From NCBI GenBank assembly GCA_031421415.1, contig JANOOP010000193.1, positions 1 to 32,150 on the forward strand: a DNA stretch of 32,150 nucleotides, given 5' to 3'. The stretch comes from Candidatus Eiseniibacteriota bacterium. GTDB lineage: Bacteria > Eisenbacteria > RBG-16-71-46 > SZUA-252. Below the pieces are notes generated by a model that was given only the letters and a program-made list of their open reading frames with translations, had not been told where the DNA came from and made no database searches. Each line of letters opens with the position of its first letter. Positions within the stretch are counted from its first letter, which is position 1. Position numbers and translations under genes: made by a program. Positions 5,309-29,607 of the stretch are shown here, piece after piece.

Positions 5309-6412
5309 CTAGTTCACCCGCCGCCGGCGGTTCCGGCTGTAGTCGACGAAGAGGTAGGAGCCGAGCGATTCAAGGTCGGAGTAGTAGGCGCGGCCCTTGT
5401 TGAGCTGCGTGAAGCGTTCGACGAAGCGAACGAGATAGGGATCCTGCGTCACCATGAAGGTGGTGACGGGGATCCTCTTCCGGCGGCACTGCACGGCCTC
5501 GTCCAAGGTCTTGTTCACGATCTTGGGATCGAGGCCGAACGCGTTCTTGTAGAGACGTCCGTTCTCGTGAATGGCCGACGGCTTCCCGTCGGTGATCATG
5601 AAGATCTGCTTGTTCACGTGTTTCTGGCGCGCCAGGATCTTCTGCGCCAGCTGCAGTCCCGCCTTCGTGTTCGTGTGGTACGGCCCCACCGAGACGTAGG
5701 GGATGTCCCGCACCTTCACCTCCCACGCGTCGTCCCCGAAGAGCACGACCGAAATCGAATCCTTGGGATAGCGCGTCATGATCAGCTCGGAGAGGGCAAG
5801 CGCCGCCTGCTTGGCCGGCGTGATCCGGTCCTCGCCGTAGAGAATCATCGAATGGCTCACGTCGATCAGGACGACCGTCGCGCACGAGGAGAGGTGCTCG
5901 GTCTCGAAGACTTCCAGGTCGTCCTCGTGAAGCGACGCCCCTTCCTCGCCCCAGGCGCCGCGGGTCCGCCGCATGGAGTTCCGCACGCTGGAGAGGAAGT
6001 CGATGTCGGAGACCGAGTCGCCGAACGCGTAGGGCCGCGTCTCCGTGGTCCGGTCGCCCCCCGAGCCGGTCCGCGGGACGCGGTGCTCGCCGGAGGAATC
6101 GCGGGCCAGATTCGAGAAGATCCGGTCGAGAGCGTCCTTCCGGATCATCTTCTCGCCCTTGCCGGTGAGGACGTTTTTCCCGTTCACTTCCTTGATGGCA
6201 TCCTGATCGTGCAGCTGCTTCTTGAAGTCCTCCAGCGTGAACTTCTCGTTGAAGAAGCCGAAGCGCTCGCCCAAATCCGCCATGGCGCGAAACGCCTCGT
6301 CCACGTTGCCATCGGTCATGAGGAGGATGCGGTTATAGAGGGAGAGGAGATTACGCAGGAAATTCAAGTCCCGAAGAATCTTGTCGTCCCACTGGGAATA
6401 GCGGAAATCCAT
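5309..6412 (-). CDS. VWA domain protein (CoxE-like VWA), 367 aa
   Basis: MIDAS motif [10 protein letters not shown] with later FMITDGKPS. Sits 38 nt downstream of the AAA+ ATPase on the same strand. Confidence 0.8.
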
Positions 6413-6450
6413 GGCGGGGTCGTCGCTCCGCGGCCGGGCGCCCGAAGGCC

Positions 6451-7959
6451 CTAGTCGTCGGCCTCCCCGGGCTTCCCGAGCATCGTGGAGAACATGTCGG
6501 TGTAGGCGAGCGCCGCCGTGTCGGTCCTCTCCTTGGCCAGGATCGAGCTCTGGTGGAGTGCCTCCAGCACGAACTCCATGGCGGTCGGAAGCTCCGCCGG
6601 GTCCTTCACCGGGAGGTAGCGCTTCGAGAGTTCCTCCAGCCCCGCGACCTGCGCGAGGTGCTTGTGGAATTCGCGCGTCGGGAGATCGTCCGAGATCTCA
6701 ACCTTCTTTCCCTGCGCGAACCACCGGAGGACAGGGTCGTACTCGGAGGCGGCCCCTTCGCCCTTCTCCTTCGCCTTGTAGGCGTCGGGGAAATACTTCA
6801 CGAAGAGTTCCTTTACGGCCTTTCCCACGAGATGCTTCGCCACCGCCACGGAGCCTTCCTGCTCGCCCTCGTAGACCAGTTCTACCTTGCCGGTGATGGA
6901 GGCGATTCCGTTCTGGAAGTCGCAGATGCGGACCGCGACACGCCGCTCGCGGTGGCGAATGGCCCGCCGCTCGGCGTTCGAAATCACGTTCTCCAAGAGT
7001 GAGATCGTCATGCGGACGCTGACGCCGCTCGATTGGTCGACGTACGACGACTTCCGGGCCTGCATCGCCACGACCTCCACCAGCTCGCGGATGTAAGGCG
7101 GCACGATGACTTCCAGGCCGCCGGGGCGCTTCACCCACGCTTCCTGCTCGGTCACCTGGATGGCGTCTTCGACCGTGAAGGGGTAGTGCGTCATGATCTG
7201 GGAGGCGATCCGGTCGCGAAGCGGCGTGATGATGTTGCCGCGGTTCGTGTAATCCTCCGGATTCGCCGAGAAGACGATCTGGATGTCGAGCGGGAGGCGG
7301 ATCGGGAATCCGCGGACCTGAATGTCCTTCTCCTCGAGAATGTTCAGGAGCCCCACCTGGATGCGCGGCTGGAGGTCGGGAAGCTCGTTGATGGCGAAGA
7401 TGCCGCGGTTGGTCCGCGGAATGATGCCGTAGTGCATGACGTCGGGATCGCTGTAGGAGAGCCGCATGTTCGCCGCCTTGATCGGGTCGATGTCGCCGAT
7501 CAGGTCGGCGATCGTCACGTCGGGCGTGGCCAGCTTCTCGCGATAGCGCTCGCCCCGGTGGATCCAGCGGATCGGCACCTCGTCGCCCGCCTCCTCCACG
7601 CGCCGCTTGCAGGCGGGGCAGATCGGCCGGAGCGGATCGTCGTTCAGTTCGCACCCCTCGATGGCCGGCATCCACTCGTCGAGGAAGCGCGAGAGGGCGC
7701 GCAGGAGCCGCGTCTTCGCCTGGCCCCGGAGCCCAAGCAGGATGAAGTCGTGGCCGCTCAGGATCGCGTTCTCGATCTGGGGGATGACCGTCCGGTCGTA
7801 GCCGATGATGCCGGGGAAAAGCGTCTCCCGCTTCTCCATGGCGGCGATGAGGTTGGCCCTCATCTCCTCCTTCACGGACCGTGGCTGGTAGTCGGTAACT
7901 CTAAGTTGTTTAATCGTTTGTGGGCGGTTCATGCGTCTCCGGTGGGTCGGGGTGGCCAT
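6451..7959 (-). CDS. ChlI/Mg-chelatase-like AAA+ ATPase, about 502 aa
   Basis: Walker A-like LLGLRGQAKTRLL and Walker B IFAINELPDL. ChlI-like arginine region (NIITPLRDRIA). Cys-containing insert CELNDDPLRPICPACKRR. Start at ATG 7957-7959 (MATPTHRRRMN) or ATG 7930-7932. The TTG extension to 8064 runs into an AT-rich promoter region. Confidence 0.8.
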   Translation of the reverse strand: MATPTHRRRMNRPQTIKQLRVTDYQPRSVKEEMRANLIAAMEKRETLFPGIIGYDRTVIPQIENAILSGHDFILLGLRGQAKTRLLRALSRFLDEWMPAIEGCELNDDPLRPICPACKRRVEEAGDEVPIRWIHRGERYREKLATPDVTIADLIGDIDPIKAANMRLSYSDPDVMHYGIIPRTNRGIFAINELPDLQPRIQVGLLNILEEKDIQVRGFPIRLPLDIQIVFSANPEDYTNRGNIITPLRDRIASQIMTHYPFTVEDAIQVTEQEAWVKRPGGLEVIVPPYIRELVEVVAMQARKSSYVDQSSGVSVRMTISLLENVISNAERRAIRHRERRVAVRICDFQNGIASITGKVELVYEGEQEGSVAVAKHLVGKAVKELFVKYFPDAYKAKEKGEGAASEYDPVLRWFAQGKKVEISDDLPTREFHKHLAQVAGLEELSKRYLPVKDPAELPTAMEFVLEALHQSSILAKERTDTAALAYTDMFSTMLGKPGEADD

Positions 7960-8051
7960 TTCCTTTCGAACACCGTCAGCGTACCCCTTTGATGCGGTGG
8001 GGGACAAGGCCGTACCGGGAAAGGGTGGATGGGTCGTATACAAAACAAATG

Positions 8052-8081
8052 TTGACTTTAGCAAGACAAATGCCGAATAAT
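8052..8081 (+). promoter_or_regulatory. Candidate sigma70-type promoter for the Lrp/AsnC gene inside an AT-rich island
   Basis: TTGACT (8052-8057), 18-nt spacer, AATAAT (8076-8081). The ATG is at 8090, so the transcript would be leaderless or nearly so. The surrounding 8036-8089 is strikingly AT-rich for this sequence. Confidence 0.4.
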
Positions 8082-13321: not shown

Positions 13322-13804
13322 ATGACCGTGACCATGACCTCGCTGACGCCGATCAAGATCGGGGAGAAGGCACCCGACTTCACGTTGAAGGACCAGGTAG
13401 GCAACGCCGTGTCGCTCTCCTCGTTCCTGGGGAAGCAAAACGTCGTGCTCGTCTTCTATCCGCTCTCTTTCACCAGCGTCTGCGCGGTGCAGATGCCGGG
13501 GTACAGCAAGGAGCGGCAGCGATTCGAGGACCACGACGCCCAGGTGCTCGGCATCTCCGTCGACTCCTCGGCGGTCCACAAGGCGTTCGCGGAGAGCGTC
13601 GGGGTCGAGTTTCCGCTGCTGGCGGACTTCTATCCGCACGGAGCCGTCGCCATGGCGTACGGCGTCTTCCGGGAGGAGGGCTTCGCGGAGCGTTCGACCT
13701 TCGTCATCGACAAGCGGGGCATCGTCCGCTACGCGGAGCTCCACGAATTCGGCCGGGTGCCCGATCGCGCCAAGACGATCGAGGCGCTGAGCGGCCTCGA
13801 CTGA
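13322..13804 (+). CDS. Peroxiredoxin, AhpE-like (AhpC/TSA family), 160 aa
   Basis: KAPDFTLKD...VVLVFYPLSFTSVC peroxidatic Cys context. Confidence 0.85.
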   Translation: MTVTMTSLTPIKIGEKAPDFTLKDQVGNAVSLSSFLGKQNVVLVFYPLSFTSVCAVQMPGYSKERQRFEDHDAQVLGISVDSSAVHKAFAESVGVEFPLLADFYPHGAVAMAYGVFREEGFAERSTFVIDKRGIVRYAELHEFGRVPDRAKTIEALSGLD

Positions 13805-14738: not shown

Positions 14739-15677
14739 GTGGCTCCGAAGAGCGCCAGCAAGGGATCGGGGAAGAAGCAACCGAAGGCCTCCCCGCAGGG
14801 AAAGGCCAAGAAGACGGCAGCCCCCTCCGCCCGGAAGGCTACGAAGCAGGCCGTGAGTCCGGCTGTCAAGAAGGCGGCCAAGCCGGCGGCGAAGGTCGCC
14901 CCGATCAAGTTCGCGACGAAGGACCGGGCCATGGTCCCGGCCAAGCCCGCCGCCAAGACGCCCGCGCGCCCCGTCGTGAGAACGGCCGCGCCCAAGGGCG
15001 CTCCCGCGCCGATCGGAAAAATGGGCGGGAAGGGAAGGATGGGCGGCAAGAGCGGCTCCGGCGCCCACCACGGATCCGAGCCCGGCGGCCACGAGCGGGT
15101 GGGGCTGGAATTCGAGATGGTGGAACCGCCGATCCCGGTGGTGGTCCACGAGCCGCCGATCCTTCCGACTCCGTCGCGCCGCAAGCCGAAGCCCGGCTCG
15201 CCCGATTGGCCCGGCGAGGGACTCACGGTCGGCATGGAAGCGCCCGCCATCTCGCTTCCGAGCACGCTGGGGCGCAAGGTCACCCTGGCCGAATTCCGCG
15301 GCAAGCGCGTCGTGCTCTACTTCTATCCCAAGGACGACACGCCCGGCTGCACCATGGAAGCGTGCGGGTTTCGCGACAACATGTCGCGCATCACGTCGAA
15401 GGACGCCGTCGTTCTCGGCATCAGCCTCGACGATGAACTCAGCCATCAGCGGTTCGCGCAGAAGTACAACCTCCAGTTCCCGCTTCTCTCCGACGTCGAC
15501 GCCGCCATCTGCCGGCGATTCGGCGCGTACAAGGAGAAGAGCCTCTATGGGCGGTCGTTCTGGGGTGTCGAGCGCACGACCTTCGTCATCGACCGGGAGG
15601 GGAAGGTGGAAAACGTCTTCCGCCGCGTAAAGGTCGAAGGCCACGCCGATGAGGTTCTCGCCACGCTTTCCGTCTAG
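14739..15677 (+). CDS. bcp: Bcp/PrxQ-type peroxiredoxin with an approximately 160-aa N-terminal extension whose first ~100 aa are Lys/Ala/Pro-rich, 312 aa
   Basis: C-terminal domain: RVVLYFYPKDDTPGCTMEACGF (CxxxxC of Bcp/PrxQ). N-terminus: KKAAKPAAKVAP, AKPAAKTPARP, about 21 Lys in the first 100 residues. GTG start with GAGGGGG 6 nt upstream. Confidence 0.8.
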   Translation: MAPKSASKGSGKKQPKASPQGKAKKTAAPSARKATKQAVSPAVKKAAKPAAKVAPIKFATKDRAMVPAKPAAKTPARPVVRTAAPKGAPAPIGKMGGKGRMGGKSGSGAHHGSEPGGHERVGLEFEMVEPPIPVVVHEPPILPTPSRRKPKPGSPDWPGEGLTVGMEAPAISLPSTLGRKVTLAEFRGKRVVLYFYPKDDTPGCTMEACGFRDNMSRITSKDAVVLGISLDDELSHQRFAQKYNLQFPLLSDVDAAICRRFGAYKEKSLYGRSFWGVERTTFVIDREGKVENVFRRVKVEGHADEVLATLSV

Positions 15678-19451: not shown

Positions 19452-21500
19452 ATGGGCACGGCCTCTTTCCTGCAGGACCTCGTCATCACGCTGACGGCGG
19501 CACTGCTCGTGCTCCTGCCCAGCCGCCGGCTGCGCCTGCCGTCGGCGGTCGGGTTCATGCTCACGGGGATCCTGATCGGCCCCGGCGGATTCCGGCTGGT
19601 GAGCGATCCGCATCACGTCGAAATCCTGGCCGACATCGGCGTCGCGGTGCTCCTCTTCATGATCGGCCTGGAGTTCTCTCTGGCCCGGCTGAAGGAGATT
19701 TGGCGAGCCTTCCTCCTGGCCGGCCCGCTCCAAGTCGTGGGGACCATCGCGGCCATCGCCGCGCTCCTCCTGGCGCTGCCGGTCGGCGCGACGCTCCCGA
19801 AGGCGGTCTTCGCCGGCATGCTCATCGCGCTCTCCTCCACGGCCATGATTCTCCGCCTCCTCGCCGAGCGCGGAGAGACGCACGCGCCGCAGGGACGGCT
19901 CCTCCTGGGGATCCTCCTCTTCCAGGACGTGGCCATCGTGCCGATGCTCATCGCGACGCCAATCTTAGCGGGGACGAGCCGGCTGGCGTTGGGGCCGGGG
20001 CTCCTCCTGGGCGTGGCCGCGATCGTCGCCCTCTTCCTCCTCGCGCGCTACGGCATGCCGCGGCTGGTGAACGCGGTGATCCGGAGCGGCGTGCGGGAGC
20101 TCTACGTGATGATGGCGGTCGCGATCTGCCTGGGCGCCTCGCTCATCACGGGCGCGCTCGGACTTTCGCCGGCGCTCGGCGCCTTCCTGGGCGGACTGCT
20201 TGTCAGCGAGTCGGAATACTCGCACCAGATCGTCGCGGAGATCCTTCCGTTCCGCGACCTCTTCAGCAGCGTCTTCTTCATCTCGATCGGGATGCTCCTC
20301 GTCCCGGCTGCGCTTCTGTCGATGGCGGGTCCGGTTGGCGGCTGGCTCGTCCTCTCCATGGCCGTGAAGGCCGTGGTCGCGGGGGGAATCGTCCGGCTCC
20401 TCGGCTTTCCGCTCCGGATCGCCGTGGTCGTGGGAATCTCCCTGGCGCAGGTGGGAGAGTTCTCGTTCGTCCTCGCGCGGATCGGGCTGGACCAGGGGCT
20501 CCTCTCCGCGGCGCAGAGCCAGCAGTTCATCGCCGTCGCGGTCATCTCGCTCATCCTGACGCCGTTTCTCTTGAGCGGAGCGGCCTGGGCAGGCGCGCAC
20601 ACGGGAACGCACGTTCATCTCCCTCCCGCGGGGGTCTCCGCGGAGGGGCGCATCTCCGGCGCGGCGATTCCGGCGATCGATGCGGGTGCCGCCACGTCGG
20701 CGGCGGCGAAGGGGGCGGGCGCGGAGCCGCCGCTGCGCGACCACGTCATCGTCGCCGGCTACGGCGTGAACGGCAGGAACGTCGCCCGCGTCCTGCGCGA
20801 GGTCGGCGTACCCTACGTCGTCCTCGAACTTGACACCGCCATCATCCGCCGCGCGCGGGAAGCCGGGGAGAGAGTCCACTTCGGCGACGTCTCGCGTCCG
20901 GAGGGGCTCCGCGACTGCGGTCTCGATCGCGCGTCGGTGGTGGTTTTGGCCATCTCCGATCCGGCGGCCACGCGGTTCGCCGTACACCAGGCCCGCCAGA
21001 GCAACCCCCGCGTCTACATCATCGCGCGCACGCGGCTCGTCGCGGAGGTGAAGGAACTTTACCGGCTCGGCGCGGACGAGGTGATCCCCGAGGAATTCGA
21101 GACCTCGATCGCGATCCTGGCGCGCGTGCTCCGGCGCTTCCACGTTCCCGCGAACGTCGTCCGGCTCCAAGAGCAGGCACTGCGGCAGGAGGGGTACTCG
21201 TTCTTACGCGGAGGCGACATCACGGGGTCGCTCATGACGTCGGTCACGCGGATGATCGCCGGCGCCACGACCGATACCTACTATCTGGATCCCGGATCGC
21301 CGGCGGTGGGGAAGACCCTCGCGGAACTCGATCTTCGCGGCCGGACGCGGGCCCTTGTCATCGCCGTGGTGCGGGACGGCAAGCACACGCTCGGTCCCGA
21401 GGCCGACTTTGTCTTTCAGGCGGGAGACATTCTCGTCCTGGTGGGGGACCACCAGTCGCTCGACGCGGCGTACGGCGTGCTGGGGGGAGTGGGCGCCTAG
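19452..21500 (+). CDS. Kef-type monovalent cation:proton antiporter (CPA2) with RCK/TrkA-N and TrkA-C domains, 682 aa
   Basis: About 12 TM segments in an Na_H exchanger-like body. Rossmann HVIVAGYGVNGRNVARVL, then a TrkA-C-like end (ELDLRGRTRALVIAVVRDG...GDILVLVG). Starts 1 nt after the upstream stop. Confidence 0.85.
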   Translation: MGTASFLQDLVITLTAALLVLLPSRRLRLPSAVGFMLTGILIGPGGFRLVSDPHHVEILADIGVAVLLFMIGLEFSLARLKEIWRAFLLAGPLQVVGTIAAIAALLLALPVGATLPKAVFAGMLIALSSTAMILRLLAERGETHAPQGRLLLGILLFQDVAIVPMLIATPILAGTSRLALGPGLLLGVAAIVALFLLARYGMPRLVNAVIRSGVRELYVMMAVAICLGASLITGALGLSPALGAFLGGLLVSESEYSHQIVAEILPFRDLFSSVFFISIGMLLVPAALLSMAGPVGGWLVLSMAVKAVVAGGIVRLLGFPLRIAVVVGISLAQVGEFSFVLARIGLDQGLLSAAQSQQFIAVAVISLILTPFLLSGAAWAGAHTGTHVHLPPAGVSAEGRISGAAIPAIDAGAATSAAAKGAGAEPPLRDHVIVAGYGVNGRNVARVLREVGVPYVVLELDTAIIRRAREAGERVHFGDVSRPEGLRDCGLDRASVVVLAISDPAATRFAVHQARQSNPRVYIIARTRLVAEVKELYRLGADEVIPEEFETSIAILARVLRRFHVPANVVRLQEQALRQEGYSFLRGGDITGSLMTSVTRMIAGATTDTYYLDPGSPAVGKTLAELDLRGRTRALVIAVVRDGKHTLGPEADFVFQAGDILVLVGDHQSLDAAYGVLGGVGA

Positions 21501-23683
21501 GAAGGCGCCGCGCTCGCCGGCGCGGCTTCCGCCTCGGCGACGACGGCGGCCACGGTGGAGGGCCGCCGGCCATACGTCCAGGTCGCCCAGACGACGAACG
21601 CCAGGACCGCGATGCTCTCGAGGAGATAGCGCATGTCGAAGTAGTAGGTCGAGAACTCGATGACGTGGCTGAACGACGCCAGGAGCAGGAGCCCGATCGG
21701 AATGTCGTCGCGCTTCTCCCACAGGAAGGCCGCCACCGTCAGGAACGAGAAGTAGTAGCAGGTCAGCTCCATGCTTACCGCGATCACGCCGAAGCCGAAC
21801 GCCGCCAGGACCCACCACTCCATCTCGCGCCGCACCCCCCAGCAAAGGAGCGCCAGGTAGGCGGCGACCAGCACCAGGAAGAGGGGCTGTCCGAACGCGC
21901 CGCGGAAGGTGTTCTTGCGCGCCTCCCGGAAATTATGGAACGGATCGGCCGAGCGGGGGTCGTAGGTCGCCTTCTGGCGCGTCTCCCACCGGAATCCGAC
22001 CACGGTGCGAAGGCCCATGTAGTTTGTCAGCGGCGAGCCGGCATGCTTCTTCGTGTTCTTGAGGAATTCCGGCCAGGCCGAAGCGCCCCCGGCCACCATG
22101 CTCGATGCCGGGAGGAGAAGGGCGGTGGCCAGCGCGGCGCCGACGACGATGCTGGCGCCGGTGCGGTCGATGCGGCGCTCGCGGAAGAGAATCCACGCGA
22201 GCCTCAGGCCGATGACGACGAAAAAGCCGACCGGAAAGACGCGAAGAAGCGTCGAGACGGCCAGGCTTGCCCCGCCAAGGGCCGGCTTGCCGCGCTTGAG
22301 AAGGCAGATGCCGGCCACGGCCCAGAGGAACCAGTCCTGCCTGAGGTAGCCGCCCCCCGTCCAGAAGTAGAGCGCCGGTTCGTTGGTCCCGAAGAAGAGG
22401 GCGGCCACGCACGCCACGCGCCAGCCGAAGGCCCAGACGATGAGGCCGAAGGTGATCAGCAGGAGCGCGGGGTCGATCCAGCCGAGGAAGCCGACGATGA
22501 GCGAATCGGAGGCCGGCCCCAGATTCGCGAGGAGCGACCCGGCCATGTTCCAGACGGGCGAAGGATTGTAGCCGTGATCCTGCAGCATCTTCTCCCAACC
22601 GACGATGCCCGCGCGGTCGCGGAAATACGCGATGTCGTGCTTGAAATCCTCCCAGCGCTGGGGCGTGAACGGACGGAGGAAGCCGCGCTTGAAGCGCTCC
22701 GGGTCCTCCAGGACATACGTGGCCGGAACGATCTCGTTCTTTCTCAGGTCCCGAATCGTGCGCAACTCCACGCGTCGGCGGAATCCCTGCTCCGCCTCGG
22801 CCAGGTTGGCGCATTCGTAGAGGTGCGTGTAGCCGAGTTCCGGAAAGTATTTCGCGCCGATGAAGTAGTGGAAGAACTCGTGAACGTGGATGCGCTTCGG
22901 GAAGTGGTAGGCGCCCCCGTTGTAGTAGCCGAAGAAGCCGAGAAGTCCCAGCGTGAGGAGGAGTCCGTCGCGGAGCCGCCGGAAGCGCTCCGGCGCGCCG
23001 CGGCGCTTCAGGACGAGGCCCCACCACAAGAGAGCGGCCCCGAGGAACGCCAGCAGCGCCTTGAGGATGTTCGTGTCGTGGCGCGTGAGATGGTGCCAGG
23101 AGCGCGGCGAACTCGGAGGGGGCGGCGCCTCCGCGGCCACAACCGGCGGAGCGGGCCAGTCGATGGGAATTTCGCAGAACAGCTGCACCTCGGACAACGA
23201 GCGCGAACCGTTGCCCATCGCTTCGCCGAAGCGCACGAAGCGGCCATGGACGCCCGAGAAGAGCGTGGAACGGAGCTGCATGCCGCGGCCCTTCGCTCCC
23301 ACTTTCGGAACGGCCCAGATTTCCCGGAAGGCCGCGCCGTCGTCCGAGACCTGGAGCGAGAAGCCGTTCCAGGCATCGCCTTGAACCAGCGCGGCCGCGA
23401 TCGGCATGTCGGCGCCGAGATCGAAGGTGAGGGAGCCCGCGGCGGTCAGGAACCTCACGCCGCTCCCCGCGCGCCAGGTCGCTCCTTCGGCGACGCCGGC
23501 GCCGTCCACCGCCAGCCTCGGCGATCCCTCCACGTCGAGCGAATCGACGAGACGCGCCGTGGCCAGAAGATTGCCTGGAGGGCAGGCCGGGGTGGCGGGT
23601 TGCGCGAGGGAGGAGACCGCCGGGACCGAGGCGAGGAGCACGCCGAGGAGAACCGCGAGCGCCGTCCGCCGGAACAGGCTCAT
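21497..23683 (-). CDS. Polytopic membrane protein with an N-terminal secreted discoidin (F5/8 type C, galactose-binding-like) domain, 728 aa
   Basis: Signal peptide MSLFRRTALAVLLGVLLASVPAVSSLA. Cys-bracketed domain of about 150 aa (LAVDGAGVAEGATW, FSLQVSDDGAAFREIW, GRFVRFGEAMGNGSRSLSEVQLFC). More than 10 hydrophobic segments follow. Alternative GTG start at 23734 overlaps the upstream gene. Confidence 0.7.
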   Translation of the reverse strand: MSLFRRTALAVLLGVLLASVPAVSSLAQPATPACPPGNLLATARLVDSLDVEGSPRLAVDGAGVAEGATWRAGSGVRFLTAAGSLTFDLGADMPIAAALVQGDAWNGFSLQVSDDGAAFREIWAVPKVGAKGRGMQLRSTLFSGVHGRFVRFGEAMGNGSRSLSEVQLFCEIPIDWPAPPVVAAEAPPPPSSPRSWHHLTRHDTNILKALLAFLGAALLWWGLVLKRRGAPERFRRLRDGLLLTLGLLGFFGYYNGGAYHFPKRIHVHEFFHYFIGAKYFPELGYTHLYECANLAEAEQGFRRRVELRTIRDLRKNEIVPATYVLEDPERFKRGFLRPFTPQRWEDFKHDIAYFRDRAGIVGWEKMLQDHGYNPSPVWNMAGSLLANLGPASDSLIVGFLGWIDPALLLITFGLIVWAFGWRVACVAALFFGTNEPALYFWTGGGYLRQDWFLWAVAGICLLKRGKPALGGASLAVSTLLRVFPVGFFVVIGLRLAWILFRERRIDRTGASIVVGAALATALLLPASSMVAGGASAWPEFLKNTKKHAGSPLTNYMGLRTVVGFRWETRQKATYDPRSADPFHNFREARKNTFRGAFGQPLFLVLVAAYLALLCWGVRREMEWWVLAAFGFGVIAVSMELTCYYFSFLTVAAFLWEKRDDIPIGLLLLASFSHVIEFSTYYFDMRYLLESIAVLAFVVWATWTYGRRPSTVAAVVAEAEAAPASAAPS

Positions 23684-23726
23684 CGGGGGCCGCGCGATCG
23701 CGTGGGAACGCGACCGGCCGCGCGGA

Positions 23727-24344
23727 CTACGCACCCGGCAGGATCCCCATCCAGTCCCGCATCAGGAACTGCATGCGGGCGATGAGGAGCGAAACGCGCG
23801 CCATCACGGTGTAGCCGAACGACGCGCCGAAGGCGACCATGAGGAACCAGATTCCCGTGCGCGCGCTGAAGCCATGGAGCCCCTTGTGGGGCGCGGAGAA
23901 GAAGAAGTAGGCGAGAACGCTGAGGAAGCCGAGCAGAATCAGGCCGGAATTGACGGCGCCCCAGCCGGGCTGAAACGGTTTCACCGCGTCGGCCAGCTGC
24001 GCGAAGATCTGCGCTTGGAGATACGACGGTACGGCGATCCCCGAGTAGATTCCCACGTAGAACGCGAGCGACCAGCGCGCCAGACCCGAGGTGCGTTCCC
24101 AGGCCCGCCCGAGAATCAGGATCCCCAGCACGAGCGGGACGAAGGGGAGGAGTTCCCCGTGCCCGATCTTCTCGATCACGTTGGGCCGGAAGACGTTTTG
24201 GTACTGCACGGCAAGAAGGTAGCCGGCGGAGGCCCCGACGAAGAGGTGCTCCGCGAATCGGTAGAACGGATTGTCGCGGTAGAGGAACGAGAAGACGCAG
24301 AGCGTCAGGAGCGCCGCGACCCAGGTGCCGATATCGTGGCTCAC
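23727..24344 (-). CDS. Integral membrane protein of unknown family, about 6 TM, 205 aa (module B')
   Basis: Hydrophobic periodicity with coding-like GC3. GTG start overlaps the upstream stop (GTGA). Confidence 0.65.
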   Translation of the reverse strand: MSHDIGTWVAALLTLCVFSFLYRDNPFYRFAEHLFVGASAGYLLAVQYQNVFRPNVIEKIGHGELLPFVPLVLGILILGRAWERTSGLARWSLAFYVGIYSGIAVPSYLQAQIFAQLADAVKPFQPGWGAVNSGLILLGFLSVLAYFFFSAPHKGLHGFSARTGIWFLMVAFGASFGYTVMARVSLLIARMQFLMRDWMGILPGA

Positions 24345-25195
24345 GCGCCGCCCCCGATCCGGCGTCTCAGCCCGCCCGTCGCGAAGAGCGCCACGTTTCC
24401 GAGCAGAACAAGAATCACGACGATCACGTGGACGAGGCTCTGGGCGTCCATCCCCCGGCGTGCGTCCCCGATGATCCCCATGAGCCGTTCATATTCCGCC
24501 GCTCCCTTCATGCCGCCGATCAGTCCGAGGAGCTGGCGCGACGAGAGGTAGGGATAGTAGTCGGTCGCCATGACCGCGGTGGCGCCGAGGATCATCGGAC
24601 GGTGATAGCGGCTCGCGGCGATGCGAATGTAATAGTCGGCGATGGACGATCCGGAGAGGTTGATCAGGAGCGGAAAGTCGGCGTACGAGTTCACCCGTTG
24701 CATCAGGGGGATGGAGTCGGTGCGGACGCCATAGAAGTCGCGGGGGAAGAGTCCCCGGATGTTCTCTCCCAGCCCCAGAATGACCGCTTGGTTCCCCGAT
24801 TTGTACCCGAGGAAGACGTAGTCCTCGTACCGCTTTTTCCCCTCGGCGGCCGTAGCCACCGCGAGCGCCTGCTCGACCAGGCGCGGTCCCGCGGGATAGA
24901 GCGTCAGAATGACGGGTTTCAGATTCCGGCGGAAGCAGTGGCGGAGCACCGCGATCGACATCGGCTGAAGCTCGGCCATGATGTCGGGCTCGTAGTCGAT
25001 CGACATGAGGATGATCGATCCCTCCGGCACGGCTTCGATCGCGTCGTAGGCAGCCTGCACGCGCGGCGACGGTGTCACCGGAAGGTTCACCGGGAAGAGG
25101 AGCGGAAGCACGGTCCCCAGTCCGACCAGGACGAAGATCCAGCGGCGATCGATGCCGAGAATCCGCTGCCAGATGCCGTTCGGGGTCGCGGCCAC
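24341..25195 (-). CDS. Bitopic membrane protein of unknown family: N-terminal TM, about 220-aa globular domain, C-terminal TM, 284 aa (module A')
   Basis: TM1 RRWIFVLVGLGTVLPLLF and C-terminal TM LVHVIVVILVLLGNVALFATGG followed by RRRIGG. GTG start 3 nt after the upstream stop, with GGAGG 9 nt upstream. Confidence 0.65.
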   Translation of the reverse strand: MAATPNGIWQRILGIDRRWIFVLVGLGTVLPLLFPVNLPVTPSPRVQAAYDAIEAVPEGSIILMSIDYEPDIMAELQPMSIAVLRHCFRRNLKPVILTLYPAGPRLVEQALAVATAAEGKKRYEDYVFLGYKSGNQAVILGLGENIRGLFPRDFYGVRTDSIPLMQRVNSYADFPLLINLSGSSIADYYIRIAASRYHRPMILGATAVMATDYYPYLSSRQLLGLIGGMKGAAEYERLMGIIGDARRGMDAQSLVHVIVVILVLLGNVALFATGGLRRRIGGGA

Positions 25196-25198
25196 GGC

Positions 25199-25816
25199 TC
25201 AGGACCTCCCCAGGTAGGAGCGGTCGATGCCGAGAATGATCTTGAGCGCGGTGGAGATGGCGCCCAGTCCCACCCCGATCGCCACGGCGCGCTTGGCCGC
25301 GAGATTCGGCACGTCCAGAAGCCACTCGGTGAGGGGCGGAAAGCCCTTCCAGATGAACTCCCCGATGGAGACGCGCCCGACCATCATGACGATGGCGGTC
25401 AGGAGCAGGAGCGTCGCTTCGATGTTGCGCGCGCGAAAGGCGCGAAACGCGGCCGACGCGATGAAGAAGGCGAGGAGCGAGAACATGGTCGAGGCCAGCG
25501 GCGCGTTGACCGAGTCGTAGATTTTCCCGACGATCGTCTCCCCCCCGACCCCCTGCGTGACGCCGAGCACTGTGACGAGCGCCAGGGCCGTGAGCGTCAC
25601 CGCGCTGTAGGGCCACCCCTCGGCCCGCTGCTGGAGCTTCTTCTGGTGCGATATCCAGAGCGAGATCGATCCCAGGAGCAGCGCGAACGCATAGACGATG
25701 TCGGCCCACTCCAAGATCACCGACTGGGTCTGCTGGGCGGCGCGATTCGGGATGAAGAAGATGGCGATGAGCGTGGCGCCGGTCAGGAAGGTGACGACGA
25801 TGGGTCCGAGGCGCAT
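25199..25816 (-). CDS. Integral membrane protein of unknown family, about 6 TM, 205 aa (module B)
   Basis: ATG start 17 nt after the upstream stop. Six hydrophobic segments. Confidence 0.65.
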   Translation of the reverse strand: MRLGPIVVTFLTGATLIAIFFIPNRAAQQTQSVILEWADIVYAFALLLGSISLWISHQKKLQQRAEGWPYSAVTLTALALVTVLGVTQGVGGETIVGKIYDSVNAPLASTMFSLLAFFIASAAFRAFRARNIEATLLLLTAIVMMVGRVSIGEFIWKGFPPLTEWLLDVPNLAAKRAVAIGVGLGAISTALKIILGIDRSYLGRS

Positions 25817-25833
25817 GGGCCGCCGCTACGCTC

Positions 25834-26640
25834 TCACGAAGTCTGGAGGAGCCGGCCGAGCCACGGATGGCCGAGGGCCGAGAGGATGATCGCCAGGACG
25901 ACCGTGCCGGCGGCGAGCGCCTTGGCCCAGTCCTGCGCGGCGATGGTGGCGAGCTGGACCGGCTCCCGCCCCAGATAGGCGCTCGCCGCGTAGAGTTCTT
26001 CGCCGAGGAGCGTGTAGTCGCACGAGCAGACGAAGAAGGGAAGCTGCGTCACCTGATCGCACCCCGCGATCTGGATGGCGCCGGTGAGATTCCCCGTCTC
26101 CGCCAGGAAGAGCGACTCCGCATAGAAGGCGCCCATGAAGATGTTCGTGGCCGGGCGATCCCGCAGCATGGTTCCGGTCACGGAGGCGACGTAGGCGAAC
26201 TGCGTGGCGCTGACGTAATAGACGCTCCCGGGCCGGAACGAATCGGCGCGGTTCGCCTCGCGGTAGGCTTCGCGGGTGGTGCCTTCGATCAGCGCGGTCA
26301 CCACGGGGTCGTAGCAGGGAATGCGCAGATCGCAGCCGAGGTCGGCCACGCGGCGCGCCACCCGGCTCGAGATGGTGATCGCGGCCAGCGTCCCGACCTC
26401 GCTCATGTCGCCGATGCCGGGGACGAAGAGCACGGGGCGGCCCATCTCGGTCGCGCGGCCGATCGCTTCGTCGAGCGCCTTCAACCCCGCCAGCGGCCGG
26501 ATGAATAGCCCGTCGCGAGAGACCTTGGCACGGCGGATGTTGATCGCGAGGAAGGCGATGAACAGGAAGAGTCCAACGAGGAGGTTTAGACGGTCCGGAT
26601 TGAACCAGCGCGCGTCGAGCGTCTCGCCCATCGCGGCCAC
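25834..26640 (-). CDS. Bitopic membrane protein of unknown family: N-terminal TM, globular domain, C-terminal TM, 268 aa (module A)
   Basis: TM1 LNLLVGLFLFIAFLAINI and C-terminal TM ALAAGTVVLAIILSAL. GTG start 26640, with ATG 26631 as an alternative. Lies 24 nt after the TPR gene stop. Confidence 0.65.
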   Translation of the reverse strand: MAAMGETLDARWFNPDRLNLLVGLFLFIAFLAINIRRAKVSRDGLFIRPLAGLKALDEAIGRATEMGRPVLFVPGIGDMSEVGTLAAITISSRVARRVADLGCDLRIPCYDPVVTALIEGTTREAYREANRADSFRPGSVYYVSATQFAYVASVTGTMLRDRPATNIFMGAFYAESLFLAETGNLTGAIQIAGCDQVTQLPFFVCSCDYTLLGEELYAASAYLGREPVQLATIAAQDWAKALAAGTVVLAIILSALGHPWLGRLLQTS

Positions 26641-26664: not shown

Positions 26665-28611
26665 TCAACGCCGCCCGGGCGCCGGCGCGGCCGGCTGGTC
26701 GATTTCCGTGAAGAATTCCGCGAGCTGCCTGGCGGCCGCCGGGTCCATTCGCTGGATCGTCGTCCGTTCCTGGGCCGCCCGCTCCCGGTCGCCCAATCGC
26801 AAATAGGCGAGCGCGAGGTTCATGCGCGCCTGAAGCGACGACGGCGCGAGTTCCACCGCCTTCGCATAGGCGTCGCGCGCCTCCTCCAGGCGCCCTTGGC
26901 CGCCGTGGATGGCGCCCAGATTGTTTAAGGCGCCGACATGCGTGGAGTCGATCGCGAGGGCCTTCTGGTAAGCCTCCATGGCCCCGGCGGCGTCCTGCGT
27001 CGCGGCCAGCGAGACGCCGTAGTTGTACCAGAGGAGGGCCTGGGTTCCATCGAGCTCGACGGCGCGGCGCGAGGCGACGATCGCCTCCGCGGCCTTCCCC
27101 TGCTGCGTCAGCGCGTCTCCCAGATTGGCCCACGCCTCGGCGTTCTCCGGAGTGAGCGACGTGGCTCGGCGGGCCGATGCCTCGGCCTCGGGCCATCTCC
27201 CCAGCGTTCCGAGGGCGAGCGCCCGGGTCGAGAAGGCGCCCGCGAGCGTCGAGTCGCGATCGATGGCGCGGTCGAGCGCCGCCAGCGCGGCCGCGGCGTC
27301 GCCCATGGCGGCGTGGTGGCCGGCCAGCTGGAGATAGGGCTCCGGATCGTGCGGGGAGGCTTCGGCCGAAGCCTGGAGGAGTGCGACGTCGTTCTCCCAG
27401 ACGGGGACGCGCCCCACGGTGGCATAGGCCGCGAGGCCGGCCAGCGCGAGCCCGATCGCCATCGCGGCGGCGCGGGCGCCTCGCGGCGGCTCCGCGAGCC
27501 ACCGGAGGAGCGAGGCGACCAGAAGGCAGATTCCCACCGACGGCAGGTAGGCGAGCCGCTCCGCGACGTAGGAGAGGCCGAGCGCCGGGAACGGGAGCGC
27601 AGGGGCGATTCCGAGAAGAACGACGAGCCCCCCGATGCGTGCCAGCGGATCGTGTCTCCGCCACCAGACGAACGCGGCCAGGAGGGCCGCGAGCGGGACC
27701 AGCGGGAGCCACGGAGCCGCCGTGGCCGCGGCGGCCGAGAGCGACCGGATCGCGTTCAAGGGATGCGGCCAGGCGAGCAACGCCAGATAGTCGCCCAGGG
27801 AATGAAGGACGGCGGCCCCCGCGTGTCCCGCGGGGAGTCCGCGCTCCGCGAGCGTGGCGCCCGGCGCCGCCGGCAGGAGGAAGCGAAGTGCGAGACTCGC
27901 GAGGCAGATCGCGAAGAATCCGGCGTAGTGAGTCCGCCGCGGGGTCATGGAAACGCGTGGTGAGCCCCAGCGATCGAGACCGATGAGGAGGAACGGCGTC
28001 ACGACGGCGGTGAAATCGGTGAAGGCCGCCACCGCGTAGAGTCCGTAGGCCCACCAGATCGCGCGCGAGCCGCCGCCCTCGGAGACGCGGACGGCTGGAA
28101 TGCGCGCCACGAGGAGCGCGGCCATGGAGAAGACCGCGGCCATCATCGCCGCTCGTCCCGAGACGAAGGCGACCGACTCGACGTGGACGGGGTGGGCGCC
28201 GAAGAGGAGCGCCGCGACGAATGCGATCCCCGCGGAGGCGCCGACGTGGACCGCCAGGTGGAAGAAGAGCCACGTTCCCGCGGCGTGGAGGATCAGGTTG
28301 GTGAAGTGGAAGAGCGCCGGTCCCCCCGCGCCGAGCATCCACTCGCCGCGCTGCAGGAGGCCCAGGAGCGGACGAAATCCTTCCGCGGCCGCGCTACCCG
28401 CCCCCCTCGTCGAGGCGAGAAGGGCGTCGTCCCAGACCCACCCATACTGGAGCGAGGGGAAGTAGAGGAGCCCCGCCACGAAGCCCGACAGGACGGCGAG
28501 TGCGTTGGGGCTCAGGTGGGGGAGCGCGAGCCACGGCTTTCCGGCTCGCGCGTCGGTCGCGTGACGACCCTGGCGCGATGTCCCCTTGGGGGCTTCCTTC
28601 CGATTCGGCAC
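26665..28611 (-). CDS. GT-C-like polytopic membrane protein with C-terminal TPR repeats (TMTC/PMT-like architecture), 648 aa
   Basis: First-loop acidic motif LQYGWVWDDALL after TM1, then about 10 further hydrophobic segments. The C-terminal ~250 aa contain repeated TPR-like units (AEAWANLGDALTQQGKAAEAIVASRRAVELD, ALLWYNYGVSLAATQDAAGAMEAYQKALAID, GALNNLGAIHGGQGRLEEARDAYAKAVELAP). The only in-frame start downstream of the divergent gene is GTG 28609-28611. Confidence 0.72.
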   Translation of the reverse strand: MPNRKEAPKGTSRQGRHATDARAGKPWLALPHLSPNALAVLSGFVAGLLYFPSLQYGWVWDDALLASTRGAGSAAAEGFRPLLGLLQRGEWMLGAGGPALFHFTNLILHAAGTWLFFHLAVHVGASAGIAFVAALLFGAHPVHVESVAFVSGRAAMMAAVFSMAALLVARIPAVRVSEGGGSRAIWWAYGLYAVAAFTDFTAVVTPFLLIGLDRWGSPRVSMTPRRTHYAGFFAICLASLALRFLLPAAPGATLAERGLPAGHAGAAVLHSLGDYLALLAWPHPLNAIRSLSAAAATAAPWLPLVPLAALLAAFVWWRRHDPLARIGGLVVLLGIAPALPFPALGLSYVAERLAYLPSVGICLLVASLLRWLAEPPRGARAAAMAIGLALAGLAAYATVGRVPVWENDVALLQASAEASPHDPEPYLQLAGHHAAMGDAAAALAALDRAIDRDSTLAGAFSTRALALGTLGRWPEAEASARRATSLTPENAEAWANLGDALTQQGKAAEAIVASRRAVELDGTQALLWYNYGVSLAATQDAAGAMEAYQKALAIDSTHVGALNNLGAIHGGQGRLEEARDAYAKAVELAPSSLQARMNLALAYLRLGDRERAAQERTTIQRMDPAAARQLAEFFTEIDQPAAPAPGRR

Positions 28612-28713
28612 GGCGGTAGAGTGCCCCTCACGGAGTCGCGTTGCAAGAGGGCCGTTCGGGACCGTCGTTCCGGCTCGCCCCGCGACCTCGCCTTCAAGGA
28701 TAGGAGGCCATGC

Positions 28714-29607
28714 ATGGCGGACGTCATGGACGAGCGGATCCGGGCCATCCAGATCACCTCGGGTGTCGGATTCACCGCGGGCGCGATCCTCGTCGCCCTC
28801 TCGCTGTTCCTCTATCCGTCGCTCCCGGCGGCCAACGAGACGAACAAGATCGTGGAGATCCTGGCGAAGCAGGAGGCCGGCTCCTGGATGATGCTCCACG
28901 CCGCGCTGGTGCTGGGGTTCGTCCTCGTGGCGATCGGATTCACCGGCTACGGGTTCCTCCTTCACCTGAAAGGTTCCTCGGGCGCGGCCGCGATCGTCAC
29001 CGCCTGTTCGCTCGTGGGCTGCTCGCTCTGGGCCTCCTTTCTCTGCGCCGAGTTCTTCGTCCACTCCTTCGTGATGAATCTCGTCTCCATCGAGCCGGGG
29101 CTCGGCACGATGCTCTTCAGCCTTTACTGGTTCTGGAAACTCGGCGCGCTCGCGCTCGGCGCCGTCCTTCTCTTCGCGGCGGTCGCCGCGGCCGGCATGG
29201 CCGCCACGGCGCGCGGCCTCCAGCCGGTCTGGCTCGGCTGGGGCGGCGCGCTCTTCGCCGTGATCGGGATCGTGGTCTACGCCTTCGACTTCCTCTCGGC
29301 GGGTGCGACCGGCGCCCCGATCAACCCGCTCCGCACGCCGTTCGTACGGTTCGGCGTGGGGCTCCCACTCCAGCTCTGGCTGGGTGGAGTCGGCGTGACG
29401 CTCCTGATGGAGTGGTCGAAGCGGATGCCGGCGGGCGCGGGTCTGAGGAGTGGGGGACGGCGCGACACCGTGCGGACGACCGGGCTCGCGCCGAAGGCAT
29501 CGCTGGAGCAAAAGCCGTCGATGGAGCGCCAGCGGCCGGCGGCGCCGCCGCCGGGGCCGGGGCCGCAGGGGCCGGAACCGCCGCCCCTTCCGCCGCCGAT
29601 TCCGTAA
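28714..29607 (+). CDS. Integral membrane protein of unknown function with a Pro-rich C-terminal tail, 297 aa
   Basis: ATG 28714 preceded by TAGGAGG. About 6-7 hydrophobic segments. Tail is PAAPPPGPGPQGPEPPPLPPPIP. The upstream part of ORF 28183.. is a shadow of the TPR gene. Confidence 0.6.
   Translation: MADVMDERIRAIQITSGVGFTAGAILVALSLFLYPSLPAANETNKIVEILAKQEAGSWMMLHAALVLGFVLVAIGFTGYGFLLHLKGSSGAAAIVTACSLVGCSLWASFLCAEFFVHSFVMNLVSIEPGLGTMLFSLYWFWKLGALALGAVLLFAAVAAAGMAATARGLQPVWLGWGGALFAVIGIVVYAFDFLSAGATGAPINPLRTPFVRFGVGLPLQLWLGGVGVTLLMEWSKRMPAGAGLRSGGRRDTVRTTGLAPKASLEQKPSMERQRPAAPPPGPGPQGPEPPPLPPPIP

Follow-up and report, generated by a model that had tools for sequence, protein, structure and literature searches.

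A run of four adjacent genes, here called A, B, A', and B' in their order of transcription, occupies positions 23,727 to 26,640 of a DNA stretch from Candidatus Eiseniibacteriota bacterium (assembly GCA_031421415.1, contig JANOOP010000193.1); the whole stretch of 32,150 nucleotides (nt) that was analyzed is referred to as the window. These genes are the conserved, co-inherited core of an operon and encode four different membrane-protein families in a fixed order, and the cassette matches no characterized system. Judging from the sequences, we favor the reading, with a probability of about 0.6, that the cassette encodes a single hetero-oligomeric complex in the inner membrane, built from four distinct protein families. 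A preliminary description of the window had instead proposed a tandem duplication of a two-gene module. Sequence and profile tests give that proposal no support, and a structural likeness is suggestive for A and A'.

All four co-directional open reading frames were recovered on the minus strand with the lengths and positions previously described (Table 1). A and B are separated by 17 nt and B and A' by 3 nt, and the start of B' overlaps the stop of A' by 4 nt, indicating that the genes are packed for translational coupling. The GC content at third codon positions (GC3) of the four genes is 0.85 to 0.93, in a window with 65 to 73% GC. This high GC3, together with thousands of homologues, rules out that the genes are spurious reading frames. 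A promoter and terminator scan of the operon gave nothing above shuffled expectation. The previously described alternation of two architectural types agrees with our hydrophobic-segment analysis: A and A' have a hydrophobic segment at each terminus enclosing a domain of about 200 amino acids (aa), and B and B' have about six hydrophobic segments each. The transmembrane (TM) segments of A lie at about residues 17 to 37 and 237 to 261. Those of A' lie at about residues 17 to 33 (N-in) and 250 to 274, the latter containing conserved Q252, H256, and N267 and being followed by a basic C-terminal tail. The true start of A is probably the ATG at 26631, which is 9 nt downstream of the listed GTG and gives 265 aa, because homologues are 264 to 265 aa long and begin with MG(E/D)TLD.

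Only gene A could be assigned to a described family. It is a full-length member of Pfam DUF6754 (PF20539), with a score of 330.2 bits (E value, 9.1e-99; gathering score, 27 bits) and with residues 10 to 260 aligned to positions 3 to 252 of the 257 positions of the model. All relatives found bear this domain C-terminally; the protein of the window is a minimal form without the exported N-terminal domains that most members carry. No function has been described for the family, and no paper on DUF6754 or PF20539 was found in the literature library searched. Pfam models A alone, and its partner families have no models: B, A', and B' matched no family of note in Pfam or NCBIfam, and A' had no Pfam match at an E value of ≤1. 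A' also does not match DUF6754, and the hidden Markov model (HMM) of the A family scored a median of 0.6 bits on A' sequences. Searches of PADLOC and PHROGs gave no meaningful match, sequence and family-profile searches found no PDB relative for any of the four families, and no cofactor-binding Cys pattern is conserved across phyla in the four proteins. The families are large: at 90% clustering, more than 5,000 relatives were counted for A, and 3515 homologues were found for A', all unnamed in both cases; an exhaustive HMMER search with A returned 2,276 clusters at 50% identity. A sequences are about 50% identical between phyla.

We surveyed the cassette in 80 genome loci, the best scoring of at least 594 matches, all anchored on A. 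The loci belong to Eisenbacteria, Zixibacteria, Ignavibacteria, Fermentibacteria (with Aegiribacteria and Sabulitectum), Latescibacteria, WOR-3, TA06, GN15, Coatesbacteria, and Poribacteria. Complete cassettes numbered 105, in 67 of the 80 loci and about ten phylum-level lineages, and their order was always A-B-A'-B'; in every one, B followed A and B' was the last gene. The median gaps over these cassettes were 15, 12, and 6 nt. One cassette was present in 43 loci, two were present in 10, and three in tandem were present in 14, with tandem repetition occurring in Ignavibacteria and Zixibacteria. The preliminary description had suggested looking for genomes with a single A-B pair. None was found, as neither an intact A-B pair nor an A'-B' pair stood alone in any of the 80 loci, and each of the seven partial cassettes (A-B or A-B-A') was cut off by a contig edge. 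One locus, L008 (JBLMXB010000041.1), is labeled Hyphomicrobiales and carries an Eisenbacteria-type cassette 74 to 79% identical to the proteins of the window; the contig is probably mis-binned.

The repeated cassettes show which unit was duplicated. Across 13 triple arrays, identity between copies that occupy the same position in different genomes was 64% (A), 57% (B), 51% (A'), and 58% (B'), compared with 53, 43, 37, and 45%, respectively, for copies at different positions within one genome. All four families cluster identically by position in these loci, indicating that the whole four-gene cassette was duplicated, and anciently. What is conserved and duplicated is thus the cassette of four genes rather than a module of two. 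On these sequence comparisons, a two-gene duplication that came before would have to predate all carrier lineages.

The orientation of the proteins was predicted from lysine and arginine (K/R) counts in the 12 to 19 residues flanking each TM helix, using family alignments of 110 to 126 sequences built from the 80 loci. For A, the counts were 7.4 on the domain side and 3.3 at the termini; for A', they were 3.7 and 7.7, respectively. Because these biases are opposite, the domain of A is predicted to be cytoplasmic with the N terminus outside, and that of A' is predicted to be periplasmic with both termini inside. For A', the family-wide bias thus bears out the periplasmic placement already proposed from the window sequence. 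A and A', being predicted on opposite sides of the membrane, are not simple equivalents. B, with about 9.9 K/R inside and about 2.4 outside, is clearly predicted to be N-in/C-in. For B', the counts of 7.7 and 4.1 mildly favor N-out, and a basic C-terminal tail on the opposite side argues otherwise; B' is possibly inverted relative to B.

The cytoplasmic placement of A is also indicated by long forms of the protein. In other phyla, many A genes seem to be preceded by intergenic gaps of 300 to 800 nt, which are in fact coding. A riboswitch in these gaps was rejected because they encode N-terminal extensions of A, and an Rfam scan of eight multi-cassette loci returned only tRNAs. In these other phyla, 66 of 126 A genes encode long forms, which are made up of a Sec-type signal peptide, a beta-rich domain (110 to 150 aa; weak fn3 matches), a TM helix, and the DUF6754 core. 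The FN3-like domain carries the motif PNDNGHS(L/I)TVTW. Among the best 150 of the 2,276 clusters, nearly all were long forms of 300 to 1341 aa, always with a C-terminal DUF6754; their variable N-terminal regions include fn3 domains, a BamB-like beta-propeller, and HEAT repeats. An exported N-terminal domain in front of the TM helix would force the DUF6754 core into the cytoplasm. The similar sizes of A and A' in the window are lineage specific, since most A proteins elsewhere are long forms.

Sequence comparisons gave no evidence for homology within either pair. BLASTP E values were 51 for A/A' and 18 for B/B'. With the alignments of 110 to 126 sequences, hhalign returned probabilities of 1.2% for A/A' (P = 0.043) and 0.3% for B/B'; with alignments of 55 to 56 sequences, the values were 1.1 and 2.0%, and P for A/A' was 0.04 to 0.05 across both runs. 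Adding AlphaFold secondary structure brought no gain. When profiles of subclades were compared, the best P values were 0.011 for A/A' and 0.0075 for B/B'. The cross-pair controls A'/B (P = 0.0023) and A/B' (P = 0.016) were as good or better, indicating that these scores are at noise level. The HMM of each family scored about 0 bits on the sequences of the others. Profile-profile comparison, which the preliminary description had named as a check, therefore shows no significant similarity for A/A' or B/B'. For B and B', the hydropathy profiles correlated at 0.34 in register and at 0.64 at the best offset; even the latter is little above the 0.49 to 0.55 obtained with MarC, an unrelated 6-TM protein encoded in the window. 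Neither protein contains an internal 3+3 repeat, and there was no half-to-half profile signal.

The cues that had first suggested duplication are likewise at chance level or lineage specific. A and A' had been noted to share their first 9 nt, and both listed starts do read GTGGCCGCG; the resulting MAA of A, however, probably lies upstream of the true start. The reported N-terminal identity of about 30% was reproduced as 7 of 24 residues (29%) without gaps, three of which are supplied by MAA, but this is no more than chance: windows with at least 7 of 24 identities numbered 40 among all A/A' offsets and 75 in the A/B control. In the second segment described as similar, 4 of 28 residues are identical without gaps. 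The equal length of B and B' holds in the window and is restricted to Eisenbacteria; outside this group, B measures 204 to 227 aa and B' measures 199 to 276 aa. With a length that is not conserved and a hydropathy match no better than that to MarC, the proposed paralogy of B and B' is unsupported.

The structure models offer partial support for the A/A' pair. The AlphaFold2 model of A' had a predicted local distance difference test (pLDDT) score of 87 and a predicted template modeling (pTM) score of 0.81; the pLDDT of the A model was 62. Both models show a TM helix, a helix, five or six beta-alpha units, a helix, a long C-terminal TM helix, and a short terminal helix, and the elements correspond one to one, as far as the A model (pLDDT, 62) can be read. 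A low-stringency hhalign alignment made from sequence only was collinear from end to end (A residues 5 to 263 with A' residues 1 to 278). Along this alignment, 74% of aligned residues, and 68% inside the soluble domain, were in the same DSSP state, with the same caution for the A model, whereas circularly shifted controls averaged 44% and reached at most 59%. Foldseek searches of the PDB with A and A' returned only generic Rossmann-like folds, none at an E value of ≤1e-3. The best values were 1.2e-3 for A' and 1.2e-2 for A, and 1wek_E was the sole entry common to both lists. As in the matched Rossmann-like or flavodoxin-like domains (LOG-like TT1465 [1wek], MT0777 [1kjn], methylglyoxal synthase [1wo8], and GT-B half-domains), the domains of A and A' are modeled as (beta-alpha)5-6 sandwiches. 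However, identity to these structures was 8 to 17% with no specific family in common, and the domains of A and A' sit between two TM helices, unlike any of the matches. The models suggest that the likeness of A and A' is one of fold class and architecture. Proteins of the (beta-alpha)n type can align collinearly and agree in secondary structure without common descent.

Stoichiometric assembly of the four proteins would give a single complex in the inner membrane, with about 16 TM helices in all. Its B/B' bundle would join two conserved, predicted ligand-binding alpha/beta domains, that of A (highly conserved) on the cytoplasmic face and that of A' on the periplasmic face. Candidate ligand sites are conserved acidic and Arg residues, namely, R48, R62, E65, E175, E181, D208, E214, and E215 in A and D67, E75, D125, and D153 in A', together with the GGMKGAAEYE loop of A'. 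In most lineages, the variable exported N-terminal domains of A (FN3-like, beta-propeller, or HEAT) would engage periplasmic or envelope partners. Such a complex might serve as a transporter or a transmembrane coupling device, a suggestion to which we are only weakly committed.

Several observations weigh against this reading. Complex formation and function are deduced from co-occurrence and gene coupling alone. The survey was anchored on A, so that more divergent arrangements were outside its view. In Fermentibacteria and WOR-3, lone DUF6754 genes, all long forms, occur with no adjacent B, A', or B', indicating that A is not invariably encoded alongside its three partners. The orientations depend on the positive-inside rule and signal-peptide logic, and that of B' is ambiguous, given counts of 7.7 versus 4.1 and a basic tail on the wrong side. 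Finally, residues 192 to 229 of A, its most conserved stretch, are essentially unmodeled in the low-scoring AlphaFold2 structure. At the Sabulitectum loci, the lone DUF6754 gene is followed by two small GNAT acetyltransferase genes.

The alternative that survives best is an amended form of the one originally proposed, in which an ancestral two-gene module, encoding a bitopic alpha/beta-domain protein and a 6-TM protein, was tandemly duplicated before the carrier phyla split. The halves would now be opposite in orientation and form a pseudosymmetric antiparallel heterotetramer. The shared domain architecture of A and A', with its one-to-one series of elements, speaks for such an origin, as does a collinear alignment whose DSSP agreement exceeds that of all shifted registers. 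In addition, two independent subthreshold hhalign matches fall in the same register and include a conserved Gln just before each C-terminal TM segment, and both models match Rossmann-like folds. A and A' have opposite K/R biases, B and B' tend toward the same contrast, and adjacent polytopic subunits of similar size, such as NqrD and NqrE, are often paralogs. However, (beta-alpha)n proteins can be alike in order without homology, no BLASTP, hhalign, or HMM cross-score was significant, and the controls did as well or better. B and B' match each other no better than they match MarC and give no half-repeat signal, and no single-pair genome was seen among the 80 loci. It would also be unusual for two paralogs to carry a 200-aa soluble domain on opposite sides of the membrane. 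We therefore consider a two-gene duplication unlikely as a whole; for A and A' taken by themselves, the odds of common descent are about even, and for B and B', they are lower. The step from A-B to A-B-A'-B' is unproven and cannot be demonstrated, and it would be very old if it happened.

Oppositely oriented paralog pairs are known from NqrD/NqrE, RnfA/RnfE, and the EmrE-type YdgE/YdgF, which are recognizably homologous in sequence. The cassette resembles NqrD/NqrE and RnfA/RnfE in having adjacent genes for subunits of similar size (about 200 aa and 6 TM). The opposite K/R bias of inverted pairs is clear in A versus A'; in B versus B' there is a tendency, as B' mildly favors N-out but has a contradictory basic C-terminal tail. 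Unlike NqrD/NqrE-type pairs, A/A' and B/B' have no recognizable sequence homology, and the cassette would place large soluble domains on opposite membrane faces. The fullest form of the duplication hypothesis, in which A-B and A'-B' are deeply diverged inverted modules that build a pseudo-2-fold antiparallel heterotetramer with homologous Rossmann-like domains on both faces, strikes us as a long shot.

Another arrangement would make the cassette the membrane part of an ATP-driven machine whose soluble components are encoded elsewhere in the Eisenbacteria genome. The candidates are recurrent neighbors in other lineages. A GlmL-like ASKHA ATPase (PF13941; GlmL/MutL) adjoins or lies between cassettes in 11 of the 80 loci, in three lineages; these PF13941 proteins score below the NCBIfam GlmL cutoffs. 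In seven loci, the GlmL-like gene is followed, directly upstream of A, by a gene for a 375-aa soluble protein with an NqrA_N/RnfC_N-like barrel-sandwich-hybrid domain. Fermentibacteria encode both as one fusion protein of 916 aa, whose NqrA_N match scores 26 bits against a Pfam cutoff of 25. The ATPase and the 375-aa protein may be soluble partners of the membrane complex, which we offer as a lead from gene neighborhood. The Nqr/Rnf layout comprises an NqrA-like soluble subunit, paired 6-TM subunits of about 200 aa, and membrane-anchored domains on each face, and by analogy the cassette with these partners would be loosely Nqr/Rnf-like. The recurrence of the genes, the fusion, and the NqrA_N match are in line with such a machine, but neither soluble gene occurs in the window or in any of the Eisenbacteria loci examined, and adjacency in 11 of the 80 loci may reflect lineage synteny. 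Membership of B or B' in the Rnf/Nqr families was rejected, as neither had an Rnf-Nqr Pfam match at an E value of ≤1 and PDB profile searches (E value of ≤10) returned no Nqr/Rnf chain. The missing Cys pattern across phyla also speaks against the analogy, and we judge the ATP-driven machine quite improbable.

That A+B and A'+B' are two independent units, cotranscribed without forming one complex, would suit the alternating gene order and the occurrence of A alone in some genomes, but this is very unlikely: none of the 80 loci separates the pairs, the four families share one pattern of paralog clustering in triplicated arrays and so duplicate and diverge together, and coupling across the junction of B with A' (a gap of 3 nt in the window and 12 nt at the median) is as tight as within the supposed pairs. 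A defense-system or phage origin was also rejected, given the lack of meaningful hits in PADLOC and PHROGs and the housekeeping synteny of the locus.

Table 1. Cassette genes, flanking genes, and related genes at other loci (locus number: positions)
Feature	Position	Strand	Remarks
Gene A (DUF6754 protein, short form)	25834..26640	-	268 aa from GTG at 26640
Gene B (polytopic membrane protein, about 6 TM)	25199..25816	-	205 aa; no known family
Gene A' (unmodeled family)	24341..25195	-	284 aa; two TM flanking alpha/beta domain
Gene B' (polytopic, about 6 TM plus C-terminal amphipathic helix)	23727..24344	-	205 aa; no known family
Downstream neighbor, outside conserved core	21497..23734	-	745-aa multi-TM protein; weak discoidin (F5/8 type C) match near N terminus
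Upstream neighbor, outside conserved core	26665..28545	-	Membrane protein with C-terminal tetratricopeptide repeats (TPR; Pfam); start approximate
GlmL-like and 375-aa genes	L015:4620-7603, L018:3871-7628, L026:611-3686, L058:578-3681, L074:45-3131		
Fused GlmL-like/375-aa protein	L028:95-2845, L069:11209-13959		
Three-cassette loci	L025, L026, L030, L040, L046, L048-L050, L052, L054, L056, L063, L074		
Lone DUF6754 genes	L020:2096-4171, L028:6369-8465, L034:7626-9698, L066:7686-8765, L070:7680-8765		
Long-form A examples	L017:7569-8798, L026:7593-8777, L049:7527-8777, L046:7524-8798, and others		

The genes flanking the cassette in the window, encoding the TPR and 745-aa proteins, are lineage-specific neighbors. 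The start of the 745-aa gene overlaps the B' stop by 8 nt; homologues lie 3' of the cassette in just three loci, all from Eisenbacteria (L002, L003, and L009), and L082 lacks one. The TPR gene terminates 24 nt upstream of A and is present upstream in some Eisenbacteria loci only. In the list of open reading frames, a minus-strand frame at 26665 to 29511 (948 aa) overlaps a plus-strand frame at 28183 to 29607 (474 aa) in antisense. GC3 confines coding of the TPR gene (minus strand) to positions below about 28.6 kb and that of the membrane-protein gene (plus strand) to positions above about 28.65 kb, so both calls are overextended. By this profile, the TPR gene is predicted to start near 28.55 kb, not at 29511, and the divergently transcribed plus-strand gene to span about 28.7 to 29.6 kb.

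The Eisenbacteria cassette is embedded in a region of housekeeping genes with conserved synteny, with ribonucleotide reductase upstream and Rieske, iron-sulfur assembly, pyruvate kinase, and AhpC genes downstream; at L082, it consists of the four genes alone, flanked by unrelated housekeeping genes. The window also contains two neighboring AhpC/TSA peroxiredoxin paralogs (13322 to 13804 and 14739 to 15677, plus strand), a pair also found in the syntenic loci L081 and L082. At 5309 to 8064 (minus strand), a dynein-related AAA_5 ATPase gene adjoins a gene for a VWA-domain protein; these genes are unrelated to the cassette. In 20 loci, a gene for a very basic protein of 100 to 120 aa with no Pfam match lies 3' of the last cassette (e.g., L019:4318-4641 and L046:11596-14876), and in 14 of these 20 loci pyruvate phosphate dikinase is next on the same strand. 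The Eisenbacteria pyruvate kinase is a few genes from the cassette. This neighborhood of pyruvate enzymes could be a coincidence or a link to phosphoenolpyruvate and pyruvate metabolism.

The cassette comprises four proteins without a described function or a solved relative, and three obligatory partners of DUF6754 lie outside Pfam. A conserved set present in up to three copies per genome likely performs a basic envelope or transport task in these mostly uncultured lineages, and the defined cassette, its unit, and the predicted topology make the system testable. A duplication, if there was one, can no longer be traced in the sequences and would have ended with antiparallel halves; as a hypothesis, the cassette would be a possible case of an inverted-module origin of a hetero-oligomer. 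Were the inverted-module form true, an inverted-repeat architecture would have been built from whole subunits with large soluble domains, and the cassette would represent a new, widespread class of membrane machines in candidate phyla of the FCB group, with more than 2,000 A clusters at 50% identity.

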